From IMG/VR virus record IMGVR_UViG_2671180984_000014: DNA of 64,000 nt, one strand, 5' to 3'. The translations under genes and the position numbers were made by a program. Shown here piece by piece: positions 1,794 to 59,454 of the stretch. Each line of letters begins with the position of its first letter. Position 1 is the first letter of the stretch. The notes beneath the pieces were generated by a model. The model did no database searches, was not told the origin of the DNA, and saw only the letters and a program-made list of their open reading frames with translations. The DNA is from a virus (Duplodnaviria > Heunggongvirae > Uroviricota > Caudoviricetes).

Positions 1794-4700
1794 AAGAGCT
1801 GTGCTATGGATCTGTTTGCAGTGGAATTGAAGCCGCGAGTATTGCCTGGGAACCGTTGGGTATGCGTCCGGCGTGGTTTGCTGAAATCGAGCCTTTTCCA
1901 TCGGCCGTTCTTGCGCTCCGCTGGCCCCATGTTGCCAACCTTGGCGACATGAAAAAACTTGCCAAAAAAGTCTTGGCTGGGGAAATCGAATCCCCTGACG
2001 TGCTCGTCGGGGGAACACCATGTTTTACCGCGGGGCATATGGTTCTTTGTAAAAATGGCTATAAACCAATAGAAAATGTTTGCCCTGGTGATTACGTAGT
2101 CAGTCATCTCGGGCGGTTACAACAAGTAAAAAGAGTTGGTTCAAAAATAGCTAATACGGGGTTACTTAATGCCGTTGGGCAGCCTTTAGGTATAAGAACA
2201 ACCAATGACCATCCCTTCCTGGCTGTTCGGTGGAAAGCCCAAAACACCCGGAAAAATGGCACATATTTTAAGAGAGAGTTGTTGTCTGAACCGGAATGGC
2301 GAGCAGCATGTGATATGCCGGGATATCAATGGTGCGCTCTAACTAATTTCAATATTGCATTTCCAGATATTTGTTCTCGGTTCTTGTCTGAAGAACAGGC
2401 TATGTATCTTGCGGGCGCTTATGTTGGCGATGGATATATTAGGAGATGGAGAGGTAAATCTAAGAAGGCGGTTGTTTTTGGCATAAATTGCCAGAAATTG
2501 AGAAAGTTTCATTGCCGCATACCAGAAAACATATTTTCCGTGGCAAGCGAAATCCGAGGGAGCATCAAAGTAACCTTGAATGATACGTGTTATGCCAATT
2601 GGCTTAATGAACATTTTGGCGAGTTAAGCCATGCTAAGCGTATCCCTGCATGGGTGATGTCGCATCCATTGCGTCATGTGTTTTTACAAGGCTATCTTGA
2701 TACTGATGGGACACCAAGTGGTAAAGCGGGATTTAGAATTAATAGTGTTAGTTCTGCGCTTGCTTGGGGCGTTGCGGGGTTGTCACAGACTTGTGGTTAT
2801 GTTTCTTCGGTCAGCTTTATTGAAGTTGAGCCCAAAAAAGTGATCGAGGATCGCGTGGTAAATCAACGGAATTATTATCAGGTAACAATCTGCCCGCAGA
2901 AATTGTCACGTAAATCAAGATTGGCTCATGGAATGCTTTTACGAACAGTCAAAGAGTTTAAATCGGTAGGCCTAGATACTGTATACAACATAGAAGTCGA
3001 AGGTGATCATTCCTATATCCTCAATGGTGCGGTGGTCCATAACTGTCAGGCATTCAGTATCGCGGGATTACGTGGTGGGCTTGATGATGAGCGTGGCGCG
3101 CTAACTTTAAAGTATGTGGAGCTTGCAAATGCAATTGACGACAAACGGGCTGAGTCATTTCTCAAACCAGCCGTTATCGTCTGGGAAAATGTCCCAGGAG
3201 TCTTGTCATCGGCAGATAACGCCTTCGGATGTTTCCTTGCCGGATTGGCTGGAGAAGATGTGCCATTTGAACCAGGTGATCGACCTGAATCAGGAAAAAG
3301 CAACGCGTTCTGGCGGTGGGATGGCAAAACCGGTTGCCATGTTCCAAAGTGGCCGCAGTGTGGTTGTATTTATGGACCGCAGCGAAAAGTGGCCTGGAGA
3401 ATCCTTGATGCCCAATACTTCGGAGTGGCACAACGACGCCGACGCGTGTTTGTTGTCGCAAGTGCTCGAACAGATCTCGATCCCGCAACGGTACTTTTTG
3501 AGTTCGAAGGCGTGCGCCGGAATATTGCGCCGAGCAGAGGCGAGGGGAAGGAAACTACCAGATATACTTCAAACATCGCTATCAGAACTTGCGATGATAC
3601 AAACATAATTGCCATGGCACATGGGCAAGGAGGGGCTGAGATAAAAACCGATAATTCGGCACCAACTTTGACATGTAACCATGAAGCACCAATTGTATTG
3701 CTCGGCGACGGTAGAATGCGCCGTCTTACCCCTGTCGAATGTGAAAGGCTGCAAGGTTTTCCTGATTGGCATACGTTGATCCCTACGGAAAAGCGTAAAA
3801 AAGTTAATTCAGATGAACTGGCATATCTGCACAATCACTATCCAGATTTAAGCGAAGAAGAGGCCGCAATGCTTGCAGCTGACGGACCGCGTTACAAAGC
3901 GATCGGCAATAGTATGGCAATACCAGTAATGCGCTGGATTGGCGATCGGATTACTAAGGCCGTATGTCGGCAGAAAGAAGGAAGTGAAACAAAAGAGCGA
4001 AAAGTTAAACCAGCGGCAGAATTCGAACGGTCCATATTCAAATGGGCTGGTGGAAAATTTGGTGTTCTGGAACAAATCTTTCGCTATTTGCCAGAAGGGA
4101 AGCGCCTGATTGAACCTTTCGTTGGTGGCGGAGCTGTCTTCATGAATGCCGGATACCAGGAAAATCTGCTAAATGATGTGAATGCTGACCTGATTAACTT
4201 TTACAAGACTCTGCAACGCGAGGCGCATTCACTTATCACTCTGGCACATCGTTTCTTCCAGGACTACAACACACAGGAAGGATACCTGGCAGTACGGAAT
4301 GCGTTTAACAAACAAGTCTATGATGATTTACATCGCGCAGCGGCGTTTTTGTTCCTGAACCGACATTGTTTTAACGGATTGACGCGTTACAACCAGGCCG
4401 GTGAGTTCAATGTCGGTTATGGGAAGTATAAAACTCCGTATTTCCCATTACAGGAGATGGAAGCCTTCCTCGGTGCGGAAGGGCGGTCTGAGTTTGTATG
4501 CGGTGATTTTGCAGCGGTGATTGAAGCTGCCGGAGAAGGAGATGTCATCTTTTGCGATCCGCCGTATGAACCGCTTCCAAATACAGAGGGATTCACGAAC
4601 TATTCCGGTCATGACTTTAAGTTTGAAGAGCAAAAACGCCTGGTGTCTCTGTTGACGGATGCTCATCGTCGAGGTGCAAAGGTTCTCATTACTAACAGTG

Positions 4701-5503: not shown

Positions 5504-5578
5504 GATGGTGTAGCTCAGCGGTAGAGCAGTTGGCTGTTAACCAACTGGTCGGTAGTTCGAATCCACCCACCATCGCCA
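5504..5578 (+). tRNA. trnA: tRNA-Asn (anticodon GTT)
   Basis: cloverleaf: acceptor GATGGTG/CACCATC, D-arm GCTC-AGCGGTA-GAGC, anticodon stem GTTGG/CCAAC with loop CTGTTAA, T-loop TTCGAAT, encoded CCA. Confidence 0.7.
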
Positions 5579-5583
5579 CTTTA

Positions 5584-5670
5584 GGGGAGTTAGTCCGTAG
5601 GGGTAGCGGGGTAGACTGTAAATCTACTGTCATTGCGACTCGGGTGGTTCGACTCCATCACTCCCCACCA
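5584..5670 (+). tRNA. tRNA-Tyr-like (anticodon GTA), long variable arm
   Basis: acceptor GGGGAGT/ACTCCCC perfectly paired, anticodon stem GTAGA/TCTAC with loop CTGTAAA, long variable arm, T-loop TTCGACT, encoded CCA; D-arm less canonical. Confidence 0.55.
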
Positions 5671-5674
5671 CATT

Positions 5675-5750
5675 GCCGATTTAGCTCAGTTGGTAGAGCA
5701 GTCGCTTTGTAAGCGAATGGTCAGCGGTTCGATCCCGTTAATCGGCACCA
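5675..5750 (+). tRNA. trnT: tRNA-Thr (anticodon TGT)
   Basis: acceptor GCCGATT/AATCGGC, D-arm GCTC-AGTTGGTA-GAGC, anticodon loop TTTGTAA, T-arm AGCGG-TTCGATC-CCGTT, encoded CCA. Confidence 0.8.
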
Positions 5751-7695: not shown

Positions 7696-7771
7696 GGCCC
7701 TTTAGCTCAGTGGTTAGAGCTGGCGACTCATAATCGCACGGTCACCGGTTCAAGTCCGGTAGGGGCCACCA
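7696..7771 (+). tRNA. trnI: tRNA with CAT anticodon, tRNA-Ile2 (lysidine) type rather than tRNA-Met
   Basis: acceptor GGCCCTT/AGGGGCC, anticodon loop CTCATAA, T-arm ACCGG-TTCAAGT-CCGGT, encoded CCA; overall close to enterobacterial ileX as recalled. Confidence 0.75.
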
Positions 7772-26839: not shown

Positions 26840-27091
26840 TTGTCGCTGGTGGTAACGATGGGGAAATTAACTTTTGTAGTCGAATTTGAGGATGGTAAAG
26901 AGCCACCTGTTAGCGCCAATCTTGATGTTGCTGGTGGCAGGCTTGTTTCGGTTCTATTTGGTGACTACCGAGATGATTTCTTCCAACCAGAAGAAGTTGA
27001 TGTGGTGCGAGAGGCATTAAACGAGTTAAGTGTTGATAACGATGATGCTCATGCGGAAATCATCCAAAAAATGGAACTGCTAACTCACTAA
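26840..27091 (+). CDS. hypothetical protein
   Basis: 83-aa acidic ORF. Confidence 0.3.
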   Translation: MSLVVTMGKLTFVVEFEDGKEPPVSANLDVAGGRLVSVLFGDYRDDFFQPEEVDVVREALNELSVDNDDAHAEIIQKMELLTH

Positions 27092-27139
27092 ATTATCAAT
27101 TATGGTGCTATCACCTACGACACCGAGAGAAAATTTATA

Positions 27140-27262
27140 ATGTCAAAAGTAAATGTTTTGATTTTTTCAGCAATTGTTGGCTTTGGTTTTACTGCCGGAG
27201 TGCAGATTTATATTGCGTGGGAAAAAATCATCAACTACGCATGGAGTTGTTTTATTAAGTGA
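27140..27262 (+). CDS. 40-aa hydrophobic micro-protein
   Basis: MSKVNVLIFSAIVGFGFTAGVQIYIAWEKIINYAWSCFIK; AT-rich context; not in ORF track (below size cutoff). Confidence 0.3.
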   Translation: MSKVNVLIFSAIVGFGFTAGVQIYIAWEKIINYAWSCFIK

Positions 27263-27269
27263 GGTAAGT

Positions 27270-27563
27270 ATGTGGAGAGGTAATAGTCATGGCAAAAGCC
27301 AGATGATACTTACCGAATATAAGCTAGACCACAAAACCAATAAATCACGTTCAGTATATTTGCTTCGCCACAATAGCCGCGTAAGGAATACCGTACTGGA
27401 GCAAAATCTGACCGTTGAAATGGATAATTACGGGGGCTTCAAGCCAACAATATCGCTTGATGATTTTCCTCGTGGTTTAAGCGAAAGAGAAGCAATGCTG
27501 AAATTAGCAGAATGGCTACAAAGATTAAGCATTGCTATTGAAGATAACTGGTCTGAACCTTAA
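27270..27563 (+). CDS. hypothetical protein
   Basis: ATG 27270 with GAGG RBS; AT-rich islet. Confidence 0.35.
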   Translation: MWRGNSHGKSQMILTEYKLDHKTNKSRSVYLLRHNSRVRNTVLEQNLTVEMDNYGGFKPTISLDDFPRGLSEREAMLKLAEWLQRLSIAIEDNWSEP

Positions 27564-27569
27564 ATTTAT

Positions 27570-27944
27570 ATGATGACACTAAAACATTTTCTTGACCGCC
27601 CATTATGGGCGGCAGCCGCAGGCTATGACTTTAATTATATGGATTGCATGTCTTATACTGCCAATGCATACGACCATTCGTTCAGCCTGCTGTTTAATTC
27701 TTTAAGAATATTGCCGCAAACAGAAGTTGGAGAGCTTCATTTATGGCTATTGGGCTTTATCGCGGCTGGAGTTGGTATTGCTGTATGGCCTTTTATTTTC
27801 TGGCTGGTGGCTGTTGTAGTGTGGTTTAAGTGCAAGACGTACCGGAAAAAGTATTTCTTAGGTGATGGAATGACTGATATTGCCAAAATGAACATTGAAA
27901 AATGGACTAAGGAATGTGAAAAGAAATGGCGCAAAAAGAAATGA
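27570..27944 (+). CDS. membrane protein
   Basis: 124 aa; two hydrophobic helices (LWLLGFIAAGVGIAVWPFIFWLVAVVVWF) and Lys-rich tail. Confidence 0.4.
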   Translation: MMTLKHFLDRPLWAAAAGYDFNYMDCMSYTANAYDHSFSLLFNSLRILPQTEVGELHLWLLGFIAAGVGIAVWPFIFWLVAVVVWFKCKTYRKKYFLGDGMTDIAKMNIEKWTKECEKKWRKKK

Positions 27945-28606
27945 CTACTCTAACGACAGCATACTTACAGCAATTGGTATTTTTTGCAGGCGAGGCTACT
28001 TGTCATCCTGACGCAAACTATTTATTGGAATTTGAGAGGTTAGCGTCACCCGGTATCGTTCTGGAACTGGCCCAACAGGTGCTGGCCTTAAGACAAAAAG
28101 AGCAACATGAAAGTAATACGTGTAGATTGAATTTTGAGCAGTGGCTGGAACAGCAACGCGGAAAAATCGATGTGGACTGTGGTTGTGTGTCTACTGAAAC
28201 ATTCATGCACTGGCTGCGGGTAGCTTACGAGGCTGGCAACTATCCGGATATTCCGGATAGTTCGGTGCCAGCGCCAGGAAAGGGCGTCACCGGTGAACGT
28301 ATCCGCATTAAGCCGCATGTTTATCGCGAACTGGTTAACCGTCTCCACGATACAGCGATCAAGTGTGCAGGCACCCGGCAATTACGAGAAAAAATTAGCC
28401 GTGTTTTGGGCGACGTTATTACGCCAGATCATCATAAACAAGCCGAGAAAAGTGGCCTGGAAAGGTGTCACCTTGAGGCGGCATTAAACATTAAGCCGGG
28501 GCATACGCTTGGCATTATTGATGCACTATTGGTTCATAAGATGGCCAGGGCTTTATTGCCGCTGGTGGCTGATAAGCATGAGGCGGGCCATGCCAACGAA
28601 AGCTGA
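27926..28606 (+). CDS. Ea22-like hypothetical protein
   Basis: 226-aa ORF. Confidence 0.35.
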   Translation: MAQKEMTTLTTAYLQQLVFFAGEATCHPDANYLLEFERLASPGIVLELAQQVLALRQKEQHESNTCRLNFEQWLEQQRGKIDVDCGCVSTETFMHWLRVAYEAGNYPDIPDSSVPAPGKGVTGERIRIKPHVYRELVNRLHDTAIKCAGTRQLREKISRVLGDVITPDHHKQAEKSGLERCHLEAALNIKPGHTLGIIDALLVHKMARALLPLVADKHEAGHANES

Positions 28607-38160: not shown

Positions 38161-38194
38161 ATAACTTCGTATAGCATACATTATACGAAGTTAT
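38161..38194 (+). other. loxP: loxP recombination site
   Basis: exact ATAACTTCGTATA-GCATACAT-TATACGAAGTTAT: 13-bp inverted repeats around canonical 8-bp spacer. Confidence 0.98.
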
Positions 38195-38624: not shown

Positions 38625-39020
38625 ATGTTTAATGGCCTGACAGATGCCAAGGTAAACGCCTTACTGAACGACGCAAAACAAAAAGCTGCTAACCCTGGAA
38701 CGAATGAAAATGAACGTGCTATGGCTGTTGCAATTTGGGAGTTAGCAGAAGAAGTAAAGCGAAACCGCTTACTATACACTCGGGTTTACCAGCAATTTGA
38801 TGGTGCGAGCTGGATAGATATCGAAGAGGCTGAATATGCAACATGCAAAAAAGAAAAAAAGATTGTTCGGATTTTGCATAAAGCAGCAACCCCAATCACT
38901 GTAGAAATCCCCGATCACAGATATTTCGAGAACGATGATCTACCAGGGGATGTGATTCGAATTATTGATGAGATACTTCATGAACAAGGCTTAACTGTTA
39001 AAATCACGCATAATAAATGA
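38625..39020 (+). CDS. hypothetical protein, translationally coupled to cre
   Basis: 131-aa ORF with GAGGTG RBS; stop overlaps cre ATG (ATGA). Confidence 0.45.
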   Translation: MFNGLTDAKVNALLNDAKQKAANPGTNENERAMAVAIWELAEEVKRNRLLYTRVYQQFDGASWIDIEEAEYATCKKEKKIVRILHKAATPITVEIPDHRYFENDDLPGDVIRIIDEILHEQGLTVKITHNK

Positions 39021-40048
39021 CTAATTCGTTAACCGTTCACCAAAATTTGCCTGCATTGCCGGTCGATGCAACGAGTGATGAGGTTCGCAAGAACCTGATG
39101 GACATGTTCAGGGATCGCCAGGCGTTTTCTGATCATACCTGGAAAATGCTTCTGTCCGTTTGCCGGTCGTGGGCGGCATGGTGCAAGTTGAATAACCGGA
39201 AATGGTTTCCCGCAGAACCTGAAGATGTTCGCGATTACCTTCTATATCTTCAGGCGCGTGGTCTGGCAGTAAAAACTATCCAGCAACATTTGGGCCAGCT
39301 AAACATGCTTCATCGTCGGTCCGGGCTGCCACGACCAAGTGACAGCAATGCTGTTTCACTGGTCATGCGACGGATCCGAAAAGAAAACGTTGATGCCGGT
39401 GAGCGTGCAAAACAGGCGCTGGCGTTCGAACGCACTGATTTCGACCAGGTTCGTTCACTCATGGAAAATAGCGATCGCTGCCAGGATATACGTAATCTGG
39501 CATTTCTGGGGATTGCTTATAACACCCTGTTACGTATAGCCGAAATTTCTAGGATCAGGGTTAAAGATATCTCACGTACTGACGGTGGGAGAATGTTAAT
39601 CCATATTGGCAGAACGAAAACGCTGGTTAGCACCGCTGGTGTAGAGAAGGCACTTAGCCTGGGGGTAACTAAACTGGTTGAGCGATGGATTTCTGTCTCT
39701 GGTGTAGCTGATGATCCGAATAACTACCTGTTTTGCCGCGTCAGAAAAAATGGTGTTGCCGCGCCATCATCCACCAGCCAGCTATCAACTCGCGCCCTGG
39801 AAGGGATTTTTGAAGCAACTCACCGATTGATTTACGGGGCAAAAGATGACTCTGGTCAGCGATACCTGGCCTGGTCTGGACATAGTGCCCGTGTCGGTGC
39901 CGCGCGAGATATGGCCCGCGCCGGAGTTTCAATACCGGAGATCATGCAAGCTGGTGGCTGGACCAACGTAAATATTGTCATGAACTACATTCGTAACCTG
40001 GATAGTGAAACGGGGGCAATGGTGCGCCTGCTGGAAGATGGCGATTAG
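39017..40048 (+). CDS. cre: Cre site-specific tyrosine recombinase
   Basis: 343 aa, near-identical to P1 Cre as recalled (TVHQNLPALPVDATSDEVRKNLMDMFRDRQAFS ... RLLEDGD); adjacent to loxP. Confidence 0.97.
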   Translation: MTNSLTVHQNLPALPVDATSDEVRKNLMDMFRDRQAFSDHTWKMLLSVCRSWAAWCKLNNRKWFPAEPEDVRDYLLYLQARGLAVKTIQQHLGQLNMLHRRSGLPRPSDSNAVSLVMRRIRKENVDAGERAKQALAFERTDFDQVRSLMENSDRCQDIRNLAFLGIAYNTLLRIAEISRIRVKDISRTDGGRMLIHIGRTKTLVSTAGVEKALSLGVTKLVERWISVSGVADDPNNYLFCRVRKNGVAAPSSTSQLSTRALEGIFEATHRLIYGAKDDSGQRYLAWSGHSARVGAARDMARAGVSIPEIMQAGGWTNVNIVMNYIRNLDSETGAMVRLLEDGD

Positions 40049-41216: not shown

Positions 41217-41377
41217 TAAATATATTATTTTTAATGATAAATGATTGACAACTGACAAGTGACTTCAGTCAGAATCATCACACGCCCGGTACGGATGGAT
41301 CCCTTTTCAAATATTCCATGGACGGCACAGTCTGAGTACCGGGCGCTACCTTCAGTTGTATTGCTAAGCCGCCGCTG

Positions 41378-42046
41378 GTGGCTTTTCTTTTTTGTAGGGG
41401 CGCTATGGATAAGAAAATATGCGTTGTTTCAATGAGCGTCGGCAAACCGGCGTCAATGACTGCTGCATGGATCAACAATGAGCTGATCATGGCTGAGCGG
41501 ACCAGCTACCCTGAACGCCGCCGCGATATGGAACTCCAGCTGCTGCGCGAATTGCGAGAAAAAGAGGAAAAGGGTTTTATCGTGCTGGTGGAAGAGGAAA
41601 ACAGCTTTATTACCGGTCGAGTTGGCCAGCGTGTAAGGTTGCGTGATCCCTTCATGAACGGCAGACCGGTACTGATTGAAGCAATGCAGATTTACAAGGA
41701 ATTGGAACGCCAGAAAGCGATCAAGTTACCGCGCAAGGAATCCGGCAAATACATCCTTCACCAAAGCATCTTCGATTCCGAACACGATAAAAAAGGCGAT
41801 GAATTTTTCAACATCAACTGGAGCGAAATAACGACAGAACATGTTCTGACGTTACTATGTTGCTTTGCGACGGAATACAACAACGTTGCCAGCGCCGACT
41901 ACATCAGGGCAATGGCTGGAGAAGTTGAGGCCCGCCAGGAGCCATCGTTACTAAGCCCTCTGATTAACATAATTCGCGGAACCCAAACGCTGGCACAAAA
42001 ACGGGTGCCGAAAGGGGAATTAACAGGAAAAGGAAATTATCTATAA
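41378..42046 (+). CDS. hypothetical protein (mat position)
   Basis: 222-aa ORF downstream of ref; start uncertain (alt ATG 41405). Confidence 0.4.
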   Translation: MAFLFCRGAMDKKICVVSMSVGKPASMTAAWINNELIMAERTSYPERRRDMELQLLRELREKEEKGFIVLVEEENSFITGRVGQRVRLRDPFMNGRPVLIEAMQIYKELERQKAIKLPRKESGKYILHQSIFDSEHDKKGDEFFNINWSEITTEHVLTLLCCFATEYNNVASADYIRAMAGEVEARQEPSLLSPLINIIRGTQTLAQKRVPKGELTGKGNYL

Positions 42047-42102
42047 ACGTCAATGCATTAGGGTATACTTCTCCATAGAACTATAAGTAAATGGAGTAAG
42101 TA

Positions 42103-43410
42103 ATGAGCGAATATGTTGAGTTAGCATACGCTGCCGCTACAAGCAGGCTTTGTCTATTTACCGGGACTGGCTTTTCAAAGGCAGTCTCGAACGGCGAAGC
42201 ACCAACGTGGAAAGAACTATTAAAAAAAGTTTGCAGCAAAGTTCACAACGCCAAACAGTTGGAAGACACGTTATTCCCTGATGATAAACCACCAGCACTG
42301 AGTCTTGAAGAAGCCGCACAGATACTATCTTTGAAGCTCAACATTGAAGGCAAGTCGATTTATGATGAAATTGTTGACATCATATCTCCAATACAACTTG
42401 GCGAAGATATATCAAATATAAAGGATTTTTTTCAAAAAAGAACATTTCGTGTCATTACAACGAATTATGACAAGTTAGCTGAATACTTAACTGGAGATGA
42501 GGAGGTTCAGTCTATTACCCCAGGCTTACCTATTCCTAAATATCCCTCCAAAGTTAAAATATATCATGTCCATGGTTCTATTGACTCTCCACAAAACATG
42601 ATTGTTACATCAGAAGACTATTTTAGGTTTATAAACTCCGACACTTATTTCTCTCGAAAACTTAGCACGATGCTGCATGAAAATACAGTTGCGATATTAG
42701 GCTATTCTTTAAGCGACACGAACCTAAAAGCAATTATAAATGATTACAAAATATTCTCGAAAGGTAACGCTCTGTGCTCTAATATATTTTTCATCTCTCG
42801 CAGTGAAGTAAGTCAAGATATGAAGGATTATTATTTTTATTGTTTTGGAATACGAGTAATTGACAACACCGAAATAGACTCTTTCTTTAAGAGATTGAGC
42901 ATTAACATAATGTTAATTGAAGGCGTCATAGCAAGAGCCAGACAAAGTATAAAAAGAGTTTTATCAGGCACTTTCAACTATAAGGATGAATACCTTAGAT
43001 TAGAAGATTCATTCTATCAAATAACCTCCTCGATTATATCTGAGGGTTTCGACTGGAATGACGGACAAGTAGTTGATTTTTTCAAGAGAATAATAAAACA
43101 AAAAAGAGATTTAACAAGAGAGAGTGGTGCTTGGGAGCAATACGAGCAGCTTGCAAAATGGCTTATATATTTCGGCAGCCTTTTAGAAATTGGTGGAACT
43201 AAGTATGAAAATGAATATTTAGACGCCGTTGAATACTCAATGTCCAACATGAGCAAAGAAATGAGATTAGGTTATTCGTGGCATGCTTATAGAGCTTGGG
43301 AAACAAGATGGTCCACAATCATTGCTTCAAATCGATTAATAATAAAAAAACGCATCGAAGAAATTGGCGTACTGGAGGATGCTAATTCTATAGTAAAAGA
43401 TATAGTGTAA
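42103..43410 (+). CDS. SIR2-like domain protein with unknown C-terminal domain (candidate defence/abortive-infection effector)
   Basis: 435 aa; N-terminal ordered motifs LFTGTGFSKA, RVITTNYDKLAE, IYHVHGS characteristic of SIR2/sirtuin NAD-binding fold; AT-rich; GGAG RBS; occupies the P1 res-mod slot. Confidence 0.75.
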   Translation: MSEYVELAYAAATSRLCLFTGTGFSKAVSNGEAPTWKELLKKVCSKVHNAKQLEDTLFPDDKPPALSLEEAAQILSLKLNIEGKSIYDEIVDIISPIQLGEDISNIKDFFQKRTFRVITTNYDKLAEYLTGDEEVQSITPGLPIPKYPSKVKIYHVHGSIDSPQNMIVTSEDYFRFINSDTYFSRKLSTMLHENTVAILGYSLSDTNLKAIINDYKIFSKGNALCSNIFFISRSEVSQDMKDYYFYCFGIRVIDNTEIDSFFKRLSINIMLIEGVIARARQSIKRVLSGTFNYKDEYLRLEDSFYQITSSIISEGFDWNDGQVVDFFKRIIKQKRDLTRESGAWEQYEQLAKWLIYFGSLLEIGGTKYENEYLDAVEYSMSNMSKEMRLGYSWHAYRAWETRWSTIIASNRLIIKKRIEEIGVLEDANSIVKDIV

Positions 43411-43461
43411 TTGAAGAGCGGCAAAAATTTAACGGGCAGCTACAACTGCCCGATATATAAA

Positions 43462-43710
43462 TCAATCCGCATTCAGGAGCAATGCGTTATCTATGATGAT
43501 CTGTTCCCATTCTTCGAATGCCCGGTCGCGGACGCCCTGGGGAACGCTGTTAGTTTTGAAATCGACGACCGTCCGCCATTTCCCGTCCGGACGGTACATG
43601 CGCAGAGCTTTACTTCCCCCTTCCCTGCGCACCTCAACGTTATGCTTGTCAGCAAACTCTTGTAATGCTCGTAGCGTCCCATGCTTTACTGTGTAGTATC
43701 GCTTTTTCAA
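43462..43710 (-). CDS. lxc: Lxc/Bof C1 co-repressor
   Basis: 82-aa basic ORF at conserved position upstream of darB operon end. Confidence 0.65.
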   Translation of the reverse strand: MKKRYYTVKHGTLRALQEFADKHNVEVRREGGSKALRMYRPDGKWRTVVDFKTNSVPQGVRDRAFEEWEQIIIDNALLLNAD

Positions 43711-57952: not shown

Positions 57953-58149
57953 TAAAAACCCCGTCAGTTGGCGGGGAACTCCACGTTAAATGACCAATTA
58001 TTATGTTAGCTAGCAGTTAAAGCGCCTAGTCATTATCTCTTAAAGAAGTCTTTTTAACTTATCTAAATTAGTGACACCTCCCGTTTTGCTTGCTATGGTA
58101 TGCATTCATAAACCTATTCATTAATCTATTCACAACAGTAATTAAAACT

Positions 58150-59454
58150 ATGGCTACACATGCAACAACAATCCGTAGCTTGCTCAATCAAGGGCCTATG
58201 ACACCAAGACAATTGGTTGAAAAACTCAGTGTTAGCCAACCAACGATATCTAGAGCATTAAGAGAACTTGGTGATGAAATCGTTAGGATCGGAAATGGAA
58301 GATCTATTCAATATGCTTTACGAGACTCTTTTAGAGGATTCGAATCAGTCCCCATTTATCGTATAACTGAAGAGGGGTGTATTTGCGTTCTTGGTACTCT
58401 CATTCCGGTGAGGCCAGAAGGCTATGTTATGGTTGAGGATGGGAAAAATAACAGGCATAGCGATGGGTTACCTTGGTGGTTATTTGATATGCGTCCACAA
58501 GGCTTCCTTGGAAGAGCATATGCATCAGCATATGCTCTTGAACTTAACCTTCCCTCAAATCCAGAGCAATGGTCAGATACTGATGTGATCAAAGCCTTAC
58601 TTAAGCATGGGCATGATGTTGTTGGTAATTTGTTAATTGGAGAGCAAGCGCGCACGCATTTTTTAGAGATGCAGCCTCCTGTTCCTGTTAATCGTGAAAT
58701 TGAATATCCTGTATTAGCTTTAGCCGCTGGTGAAGGTGATGTGCCAGGTTCATCTGCTGGAGGTGAACAACCCAAATTTTGTACTTTCACAGAGCGTGGA
58801 CATGTATTAGTGAAATTCTCTGCGCCTAACGACACCCCTATAAGTGAGCGCTGGAGAGATCTCTTGTTTGCTGAACATCTCGCATTAAAAGTTCTGGGGG
58901 TAGAAACAGAAGTTTTTGATTATAACGGTCAGAGATTCTTGGAAATTCCCCGATTTGATCGTGTTGGTCAACTCGGTCGGGTAGGTGTATTCTCACTTCG
59001 TGCACTTGATGCAGAATTTGTTGGTAATGCAAGAGCAACATGGCCCTTGCTGGTTAAAGAGTTGGTAAAAAATAAGTGCGTCCATCCTGATGCGATTATT
59101 ATAGCAACAAGGCTATGGTCTTTTGGTGTGCTAATAGGCAATACCGATATGCATAATGGCAACCTATCGTTTATTAGTAGCCACGGACGCCCATATCATA
59201 TTGCTCCAGCCTATGACATGTTACCTATGGGTTTTGCCCCACGCTCTGGGGGAGCAATGTCTAATGAGCTTAGAAAAACAGCACTACCAGACTTTGTAAG
59301 TCGAAAAATATGGGATGAATCTCTTGAATTAGCTGAAAAATTTTATGCATTGGCCTGTGAGGCCGACAAATTCTCAGCTAACTTTACTCCATGTTTAGAA
59401 GCACTACGCATCCACCTAGATGATTGTAAAATACGCATAGCCCGCCTGGCATAA
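58150..59454 (+). CDS. HipA-family Ser/Thr kinase with fused N-terminal HTH (YjjJ-like architecture)
   Basis: 434 aa from ATG 58150; HTH (MTPRQLVEKLSVSQPTISRALREL); HipA motifs SSAGGEQPKF, LIGNTDMHNGNLSF, APAYDMLP; AT-rich relative to flanks. Confidence 0.7.
   Translation: MATHATTIRSLLNQGPMTPRQLVEKLSVSQPTISRALRELGDEIVRIGNGRSIQYALRDSFRGFESVPIYRITEEGCICVLGTLIPVRPEGYVMVEDGKNNRHSDGLPWWLFDMRPQGFLGRAYASAYALELNLPSNPEQWSDTDVIKALLKHGHDVVGNLLIGEQARTHFLEMQPPVPVNREIEYPVLALAAGEGDVPGSSAGGEQPKFCTFTERGHVLVKFSAPNDTPISERWRDLLFAEHLALKVLGVETEVFDYNGQRFLEIPRFDRVGQLGRVGVFSLRALDAEFVGNARATWPLLVKELVKNKCVHPDAIIIATRLWSFGVLIGNTDMHNGNLSFISSHGRPYHIAPAYDMLPMGFAPRSGGAMSNELRKTALPDFVSRKIWDESLELAEKFYALACEADKFSANFTPCLEALRIHLDDCKIRIARLA

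Follow-up and report, generated by a model that had tools for sequence, protein, structure and literature searches.

A single-gene SIR2_2-α-solenoid cassette in the mat-lxc slot of a P1-like phage-plasmid is a candidate compact abortive-infection NADase

We describe here a one-gene cassette at positions 42047-43461 of a 64,000-nucleotide stretch of viral DNA (Caudoviricetes; IMG/VR record IMGVR_UViG_2671180984_000014; hereafter, the window), which is a portion of a P1-like phage-plasmid. The cassette lies between the core genes mat and lxc and codes for a 435-residue protein in which an N-terminal SIR2 domain is followed by a helical C-terminal domain. At a probability of roughly 0.6, we propose that it represents an autonomous, trigger-activated single-protein abortive-infection hydrolase of nicotinamide adenine dinucleotide (NADase), a compact DSR-like variant that the P1-like prophage-plasmid brings with it. 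Lysogens would make the protein at a low level and in an inactive state; a cue from infection, which is most likely a protein supplied by a superinfecting phage, would then be sensed through the C-terminal α-solenoid and change the protein's oligomeric state, upon which the SIR2 domain would hydrolyze NAD+ via Asn121 and His157 and the loss of cellular NAD+ would halt replication of the invader. The cassette would accordingly be one of several interchangeable immunity cargoes that P1-like elements carry at a mat-lxc hotspot.

The boundaries of the cassette are sharp. It extends from immediately after the mat stop codon (42044-42046) to immediately before the lxc stop (43462), and in alignments against phages RCS47 (an empty site, with a mat-lxc gap of 39 bp), SJ46 and P1 the backbone homology ends at the former, at 42046, and restarts at the latter. 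A single open reading frame (ORF) with an ATG start occupies the whole interval. Upstream, a perfect 34-mer loxP site (38161-38194) is followed by cra, an extra 131-residue ORF, cre (39017-40048), c8, ref and mat, and beyond the cassette come the convergent lxc, ulx and darB, with 5.3 kb separating loxP from lxc. In P1 itself (NC_005856), the res and mod genes of EcoP1I together with IS5 lie between mat (ending at 3468) and lxc (ending at 9750). The junctions thus bear out an earlier, sequence-only note on this DNA, which had placed one 435-residue ORF in the P1 res-mod restriction slot and had pointed to a loxP-lxc distance of only about 5.3 kb. Over the 1308-nt SIR2 gene and a 686-nt lxc-ulx segment the window is 100% identical to the plasmid unnamed2 of Escherichia coli 2013C-4081. 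The features of the locus are as follows.

42047..43461, + strand: exchangeable cassette, with homology breaks against RCS47, SJ46 and P1 and a GC content of 0.33-0.37 versus 0.45-0.53 in the flanks
42047..42102, + strand: leader of 56 nt with a GGAG ribosome-binding site (42093-42096), in which no strong σ70 promoter was found
42103..43410, + strand: gene for the 435-residue SIR2-α-solenoid protein, a full-length match to phrog_7567 (762 bits)
42103..42867, + strand: SIR2_2 (immune sirtuin) NADase-type domain, residues 1-255
42163-42171, 42463-42465 and 42571-42573: catalytic-site codons for the G21-G23 glycine loop, Asn121 and His157, respectively
42868..43407, + strand: family-specific C-terminal α-solenoid (HEAT/ARM-like), residues 256-435, a putative sensor or regulatory domain
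42773..42789, + strand: C1-operator-like 14/17 match inside the SIR2 ORF
43433..43452, − strand: G+C-rich hairpin within the cassette, terminator-like for the convergent lxc
41405..42046, + strand: mat, left flank, P1 core gene, annotated as maturation control protein in homologous records
43462..43710, − strand: lxc, right flank, convergent P1 core gene

Residues 1-255 form an immune-type SIR2_2 domain with intact catalytic residues. The Pfam SIR2_2 model (PF13289) aligns to residues 117-252 with a score of 83.6 bits (cutoff 24.5), so that the SIR2 assignment, made initially from ordered motifs by eye, holds under a profile search; the motifs themselves are FTGTGFSK (G21-T-G23), TTNYD (N121) and HVHGS (H157), and the glycine loop G21-x-G23, N121 and H157 are invariant in 56 homologues. 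When a profile of these homologues was searched against PDB sequences, the significant matches were all to defense NADases (DSR2, ThsA and KomC) and ran through the SIR2 part, with a 278-residue chain from KomBC-complex entries (PDB 9v0g) also among the matches. N121 and H157 align to N133 and H171 of DSR2, mutation of which reduces NADase activity (PMC10981675). An AlphaFold (AF2) model of the full protein reached a predicted local distance difference test (pLDDT) score of 88 and a predicted template modeling (TM) score of 0.75, and a Foldseek search against the PDB ranked DSR2 first, at a target-normalized TM score of about 0.71 over the SIR2 domain; the nearest folds are the defense NADases KomC, ThsA and Avs5, not deacetylases, and the domain is nearer to a ThsA-like than to a SIRT-like fold. 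No CxxC or Cys4 zinc-ribbon motif is present in the 435-residue sequence. Together, the lack of zinc-ribbon cysteine pairs, the matches to defense NADases and the invariant catalytic residues therefore place the domain in the immune SIR2_2 clade, known members of which are NAD+ hydrolases that are often activated when their oligomeric state changes (PMC12700824). For the protein itself, we infer that the chemistry is that of an NADase and not of a deacylase.

The C-terminal domain (residues 256-435) was predicted, when its 180 residues were modeled alone, as an all-helical α-solenoid of the HEAT/ARM-like type (pLDDT 89). The earlier statement that this region matches nothing nameable holds as far as Pfam is concerned, where nothing was retrieved at E values up to 10, but the modeled fold can be described; the PDB profile search does not reach the domain. 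Five tryptophans (344, 353, 393, 399 and 403) are invariant across the 56 homologues. Searching a profile of the domain against 1.84 billion representative proteins gave 96 matches, all 96 being either fragments or proteins of about 430-480 residues with the domain at approximately positions 256-435; in each of the nine more-distant full-size matches that were checked SIR2_2 precedes it, and no other architecture was found among the 96. Because the domain profile finds only SIR2_2 fusions or fragments, the two-domain architecture is fixed and defines the family. One report describes the C-terminal region of DSR2 as an α-solenoid (PMC11850899), another mentions HEAT repeats there (PMC11263360), and a third shows that DSR2 uses its C-terminal domain to sense the tail tube of the phage (PMC10981675). 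With its solenoid fold of the kind reported for the DSR2 sensor region, the 435-residue protein would be a compact variant of a known design, and its C-terminal domain is a putative sensor or regulatory domain.

By comparative genomics, the SIR2-solenoid gene is solitary and found in mobile or defense-like contexts. All-against-all clustering of the ORFs within 5 kb of the gene at 50 species-level loci recovered no neighbor family in more than 4 of the 50 and none at a fixed position, the SIR2 gene alone being recurrent; inspection of seven loci by hand likewise found no recurrent neighbor, and in the window no TIR, SLOG, KomA/B, HerA, SMC or pAgo gene adjoins it, all of which agrees with the earlier note's failure to see a partner gene. 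The 207-residue gene upstream of the Pseudoalteromonas homologue has no informative domains, nor do neighbors in Halomonas and Paracidovorax. On E. coli chromosomes, a 59%-identical homologue directly follows a prophage integrase gene near the prophage edge, and a homologue in Klebsiella oxytoca belongs to a P4-satellite-like element, in which it is flanked by a primase gene and a P2-type capsid-associated gene. Halomonas and Stutzerimonas homologues are found among HNH, HSDR_N, DUF87, NERD-UvrD and DUF2971 genes, and PADLOC run on the 146 nearest neighbors detected dGTPase, RT-TIR, AriA, type I restriction-modification, retron reverse transcriptases, PD-T7-5, AbiLi and others.

The family is widespread. 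The exact 435-residue protein occurs on at least 1000 contigs, and the family comprises 705 clusters at 90% identity in Proteobacteria and beyond, with full-length members in about 50 species that span Gamma-, Beta- and Alphaproteobacteria, Desulfobacter, an actinobacterial metagenome-assembled genome (MAG) and a Caenarcaniphilales-type MAG. In an Erythrobacter MAG (L053), Pseudomonas mangiferae (L060) and Nitratireductor aquimarinus (L062) the gene is truncated or split into two ORFs, and these copies are likely pseudogenes or assembly errors. The sequence already bears labels, being PHROG 7567 of ‘unknown function’ and, in RefSeq, a ‘SIR2 family protein’ or ‘SIR2 family NAD-dependent protein deacylase’. 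The suggestion in the earlier note of a possibly undescribed module is therefore upheld in that we found no functional study, but not as regards the sequence, which is common and named. The protein is best described as belonging to an already known and common sequence family and as a compact variant of the known theme of single-protein SIR2-NADase defense, not as a categorically new mechanism.

The slot itself provides context for an immune role. In SJ46 it holds a 373-residue RelA/SpoT protein identical over its whole length to PDB 7ZTB, that is, CapRelSJ46, a validated capsid-sensing fused toxin-antitoxin anti-phage defense (PMC9712102). In MH422554.1 (‘Punavirus P1’) the occupant is a 346-residue DUF2971 protein (1146-2186, − strand) that matches PADLOC PDC-S31 and is unannotated in the GenBank record; in JL22 it is a 316-residue PIN protein with a partial PDC-S34 match; and in RCS47 the slot is empty. 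Occupants sit in either orientation. In a gene survey of 5426 complete E. coli genomes, for which the exact position was verified in representative records only, the lxc-ulx marker was found in 699 genomes, EcoP1I-like res in 88 (57 places on plasmids), the SIR2 cassette in 64, the DUF2971 gene in 62 (almost all on plasmids), the PIN gene in 30 and CapRel in 14. The SIR2 cassette is thus carried by 64 of the 699 lxc-ulx-positive genomes, or about 9% of P1-like elements, and is common variable cargo of the mat-lxc slot, not a core gene. With type III restriction-modification, CapRelSJ46, the PDC-S31 and PDC-S34 candidates or nothing at all in other P1-like elements, the view of the slot as a defense hotspot, advanced before any such comparison, is well founded.

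The alleles that occupy this slot fall into three groups, whose nucleotide identity to the window is 100%, about 87% and about 83%, with flanks 95-98% identical; the mat flank is 94.7% identical to its equivalent in each plasmid with another allele, and lxc yields a translation that matches the Lxc ORF of phage MH422554 exactly and that carries the annotation WP_000747846 in each of the three plasmid records. Apart from one leader position at which the 87% allele differs, all three alleles agree throughout the leader and the first 60 nt of the gene; over its first ~240 nt they remain at least 95% identical, and in the 3′ half identity drops to 63-78%. This mosaic over 42047-42340, compared with the other two alleles (L002 and L003), suggests recombination breakpoints inside the SIR2 domain. 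Synonymous divergence (dS) between alleles is 0.5-1.4, and the ratio of nonsynonymous (dN) to synonymous divergence is 0.12-0.14 over the whole gene, 0.05-0.09 in the SIR2 half and 0.14-0.16 in the C-terminal half, with dN 4-6 times higher in the C-terminal than in the SIR2 half. At dN/dS values of 0.05-0.16 the gene is therefore functional and under purifying selection. Domain-wide positive selection on the C-terminal half is rejected at 0.14-0.16; rather, the C-terminal halves look to have been exchanged by recombination with old, diverged alleles, which fits variation in specificity without proving positive selection.

Composition marks the gene as imported, in agreement with the earlier note. 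Its GC content is 0.359 and that of its third codon positions 0.333, whereas cre, ref, mat, lxc, ulx and darB lie at 0.48-0.52, and block 42001-43000 is the lowest-GC kilobase in the window (0.36 for the SIR2 ORF versus about 0.50). Of the AT-rich codons singled out previously (ATA, AAT and TAT), ATA and TAT reach 5.7 and 4.1 per 100 codons versus about 1 in core genes, an approximately fivefold enrichment for ATA, whereas AAT is not enriched; AGA and TTA are likewise frequent.

The remaining sequence signals were only partly as first described. The gene does have its own GGAG ribosome-binding site, which lies six bases upstream of the ATG. The hairpin at 43433-43452 had been taken as shared with lxc: its stem is real and kept in all three alleles, but it reads CGGGCAGTTGTAGCTGCCCG followed by TTAAATTTTT on the minus strand, its plus-strand tail, ATATATAAAT, is not T-rich, and the scan calls a terminator only in the lxc (minus) direction. 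Separately, a terminator-like hairpin is found at 41366-41384 (+ strand), where AAGCCGCCGCTGGTGGCTT precedes a T-run. It falls between the counterpart of Pmat/LPmat of P1 and the start codon of mat (ATG, 41405) and is contained in the longer ORF that the P1 annotation gives for mat; transcription entering mat and the SIR2 gene could be attenuated by it. The claim that no C1 operator is present holds upstream of the gene, but a 14/17 match to the P1 C1-operator consensus, TGTGCTCTAATATATTT, is found within the ORF at 42773-42789. Three alleles that diverge by 13-17% elsewhere all keep its core, CTGTGCTCTAATAT, unchanged, but that core also encodes the conserved S226 and N227, and the site could be either a chance match or regulatory.

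Several observations weigh against the proposed abortive-infection role. The C-terminal domain retains a mean column identity of 63% across proteobacterial classes, unusually high for a sensor of fast-evolving phage proteins, and the dN/dS of the C-terminal half is well below 1; with conservation above that of typical sensors of phage structural proteins, the domain may instead have a conserved ligand or host partner. Defense genes near family members were recorded as occurrences only, and many neighbors at chromosomal loci are ordinary housekeeping genes. PADLOC v2 holds no full-length model for the protein, and no functional study of or experiment on the family was found in the searchable literature, subscription journals lying outside the search; a 2026 preprint on nucleoid-associated proteins was set aside as a source, since SJ46 appears there only as the origin of CapRel. 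A different solo SIR2 gene, pFR88, was cloned by Rousset et al. and is absent from the seven active systems that they described. Lastly, a scan by consensus revealed no convincing promoter of the gene's own upstream of it and none in the 56-nt leader, and transcription may proceed by read-through from mat. The mat gene of P1 has the operator Omat, repressed by C1, and the late promoter LPmat (P1 record); such read-through would therefore argue against expression of the SIR2 gene in lysogens.

A bolder version of our proposal would make the cassette an undescribed autonomous immune system of about 435 residues, whose conserved solenoid senses a conserved cue and whose sensor halves are swapped by P1-like phage-plasmids within the mat-lxc slot; this we advance only tentatively. 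The leading competing explanation, though an unlikely one, is that the protein is the effector of a multicomponent system whose partner lies elsewhere, be it a protein of the host or of P1 or a signaling small molecule such as Thoeris and Kongming use, with the C-terminal domain serving as a ligand- or partner-binding module rather than as a direct phage sensor. That its closest folds, KomC and ThsA, are signal-activated effectors is in line with such a role, and the conserved C-terminal domain with its five invariant tryptophans would be easier to reconcile with a ligand or partner that is itself conserved than with variable phage proteins; the explanation is countered by the absence of a conserved neighbor in the 50 loci and of any known partner gene adjoining in the window, and by the movement of the gene as a one-gene cassette between unrelated mobile elements.

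Less probable still is that the gene is an accessory of the P1 lytic cycle, cotranscribed with mat from its C1-repressed or late promoter and acting, for example, in host NAD remodeling, modification of host or phage proteins, or exclusion of competitors only after induction, and not in lysogen immunity. The gene does share the orientation of mat and begin 56 nt after it, the scan found no terminator between the two and no promoter of the gene's own, P1 mat has both Omat and LPmat, and a C1-operator-like site lies inside the ORF. A consensus promoter scan is, however, weak evidence, prophages, a satellite-like element and chromosomal islands carry homologues of 52-60% identity in the absence of mat, and other occupants of the slot, restriction-modification and CapRelSJ46 (PMC9712102), are lysogen-expressed defenses in either orientation. 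Least probable of all is that the protein modifies other proteins as a sirtuin (deacylase or ADP-ribosyltransferase), that it is an addiction or anti-plasmid module of benefit to plasmid maintenance, or that it is a silenced passenger with no present role. For these readings one might cite the RefSeq deacylase name, the poor expression or H-NS silencing that an AT-rich gene with rare codons could be presumed to undergo and the split or truncated family members, but RefSeq uses a generic name here, NADases and not deacetylases have the nearest folds, no zinc module is present, the context is defense-like, and purifying selection (dN/dS about 0.12) across deep divergence (dS 0.5-1.4) argues for function.

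Should the proposed abortive-infection NADase prove active, it would rank among the smallest self-contained sensor-plus-NADase defense proteins, and its small size would make it tractable for understanding how a helical domain of about 180 residues gates a SIR2 active site. The gene is frequent in clinical and Shiga toxin-producing E. coli via P1-like plasmids, in about 1% of complete genomes, and could affect host range in phage therapy. Furthermore, the mat-lxc interval behaves like a one-slot immunity locus of P1-like phage-plasmids and is a place to mine for further single-gene defenses, while the lack of a full-length model of the family in PADLOC v2, NCBIfam and Pfam means that defense pipelines likely under-call it.

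Other parts of the window also deserve mention. The 131-residue ORF (38625-39020, + strand) is an insertion between cra and cre that shares 4 nt with the start of cre and has a local GC content of ~0.40 and no Pfam match (best E value 0.09). P1 and pSJ_98 lack it, cra and cre being directly adjacent there, and it represents a second small variable cargo beside loxP. A tRNA cluster at 5504-5750 and 7696-7771 comprises Asn(GTT), Tyr(GTA, 87 nt) and Thr(TGT) genes together with a CAU-anticodon tRNA; P1 has been described with three tRNAs (Asn, Thr and Ile), and the tRNA-Tyr may be extra relative to it. Two further low-GC kilobases, 27001-28000 (0.392) and 58001-59000 (0.415), stand out from a backbone of roughly 0.48-0.53 and may be other acquired cargo.

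Comparison with described systems sets apart those that share only the SIR2 part. Thoeris ThsA is rejected on the C-terminal domain, an all-helical solenoid and not a SLOG/STALD (or Macro/TM) signal-binding domain, with the ThsA hidden Markov model matching within residues 14-241 only, and the system as a whole on the flanks, mat and lxc, with no adjoining TIR gene for ThsB in the window and no recurrent neighbor in the 50 loci. Kongming KomC is 264-278 residues long, has no C-terminal domain and acts with KomB, which is present in solved complexes, its SIR2 NADase being activated in a KomBC filament; no conserved partner gene accompanies the SIR2-solenoid family. The Lamassu LmuA model PDLC03856 is of near-equal length (433) and collinear over residues 13-222, again in the SIR2 part only, but no LmuB/SMC or LmuC gene adjoins within the cassette and SMC_N was found in 2 of the 146 neighbors. 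No HerA (DUF87) ATPase gene adjoins, as it would in SIR2-HerA (Nezha); for short pAgo/SPARSA systems, there is no adjoining Argonaute gene in the window, no recurrent neighbor in the 50 loci and no PADLOC pAgo/APAZ match. The best PADLOC match, PDC-S25 (E = 2e-27), covers the SIR2 part only, at profile positions 128-286 of 517, and is not a full-length match to the model. As for other solo proteins, pFR88 from a P4 hotspot (Rousset 2022) has an unrelated N-terminus and is not of the SIR2-solenoid family, and the Sir2 homologue of Vassallo 2022 is part of other systems.

The proposed design finds its parallels in DSR2, with its SIR2 effector and C-terminal sensor, and in the slot-mate CapRelSJ46, with its toxic enzyme and sensing domain. 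CapRelSJ46 likewise occupies the mat-lxc slot as a one-gene cassette in which an N-terminal toxic enzyme precedes a C-terminal regulatory domain, yet its enzyme is a RelA/SpoT-type toxSAS and not SIR2, so that the analogy is limited to design and location. With DSR1 and DSR2 the protein shares the N-terminal SIR2_2 domain, the same catalytic Asn and His, a helical-repeat C-terminal region and a single autonomous gene. Both are far longer, at about 1000-1260 residues with a long middle and C-terminal sensor region, compared with 435 residues and a 180-residue C-terminal domain here, and the NCBIfam models NF041818 and NF041819 give 25.8 and 23 bits against a cutoff of 1400, with only ~100 residues aligned. 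The SIR2-solenoid protein of the mat-lxc slot would thus work most like the DSR-type single-protein sirtuin defenses, yet is not a member of them.

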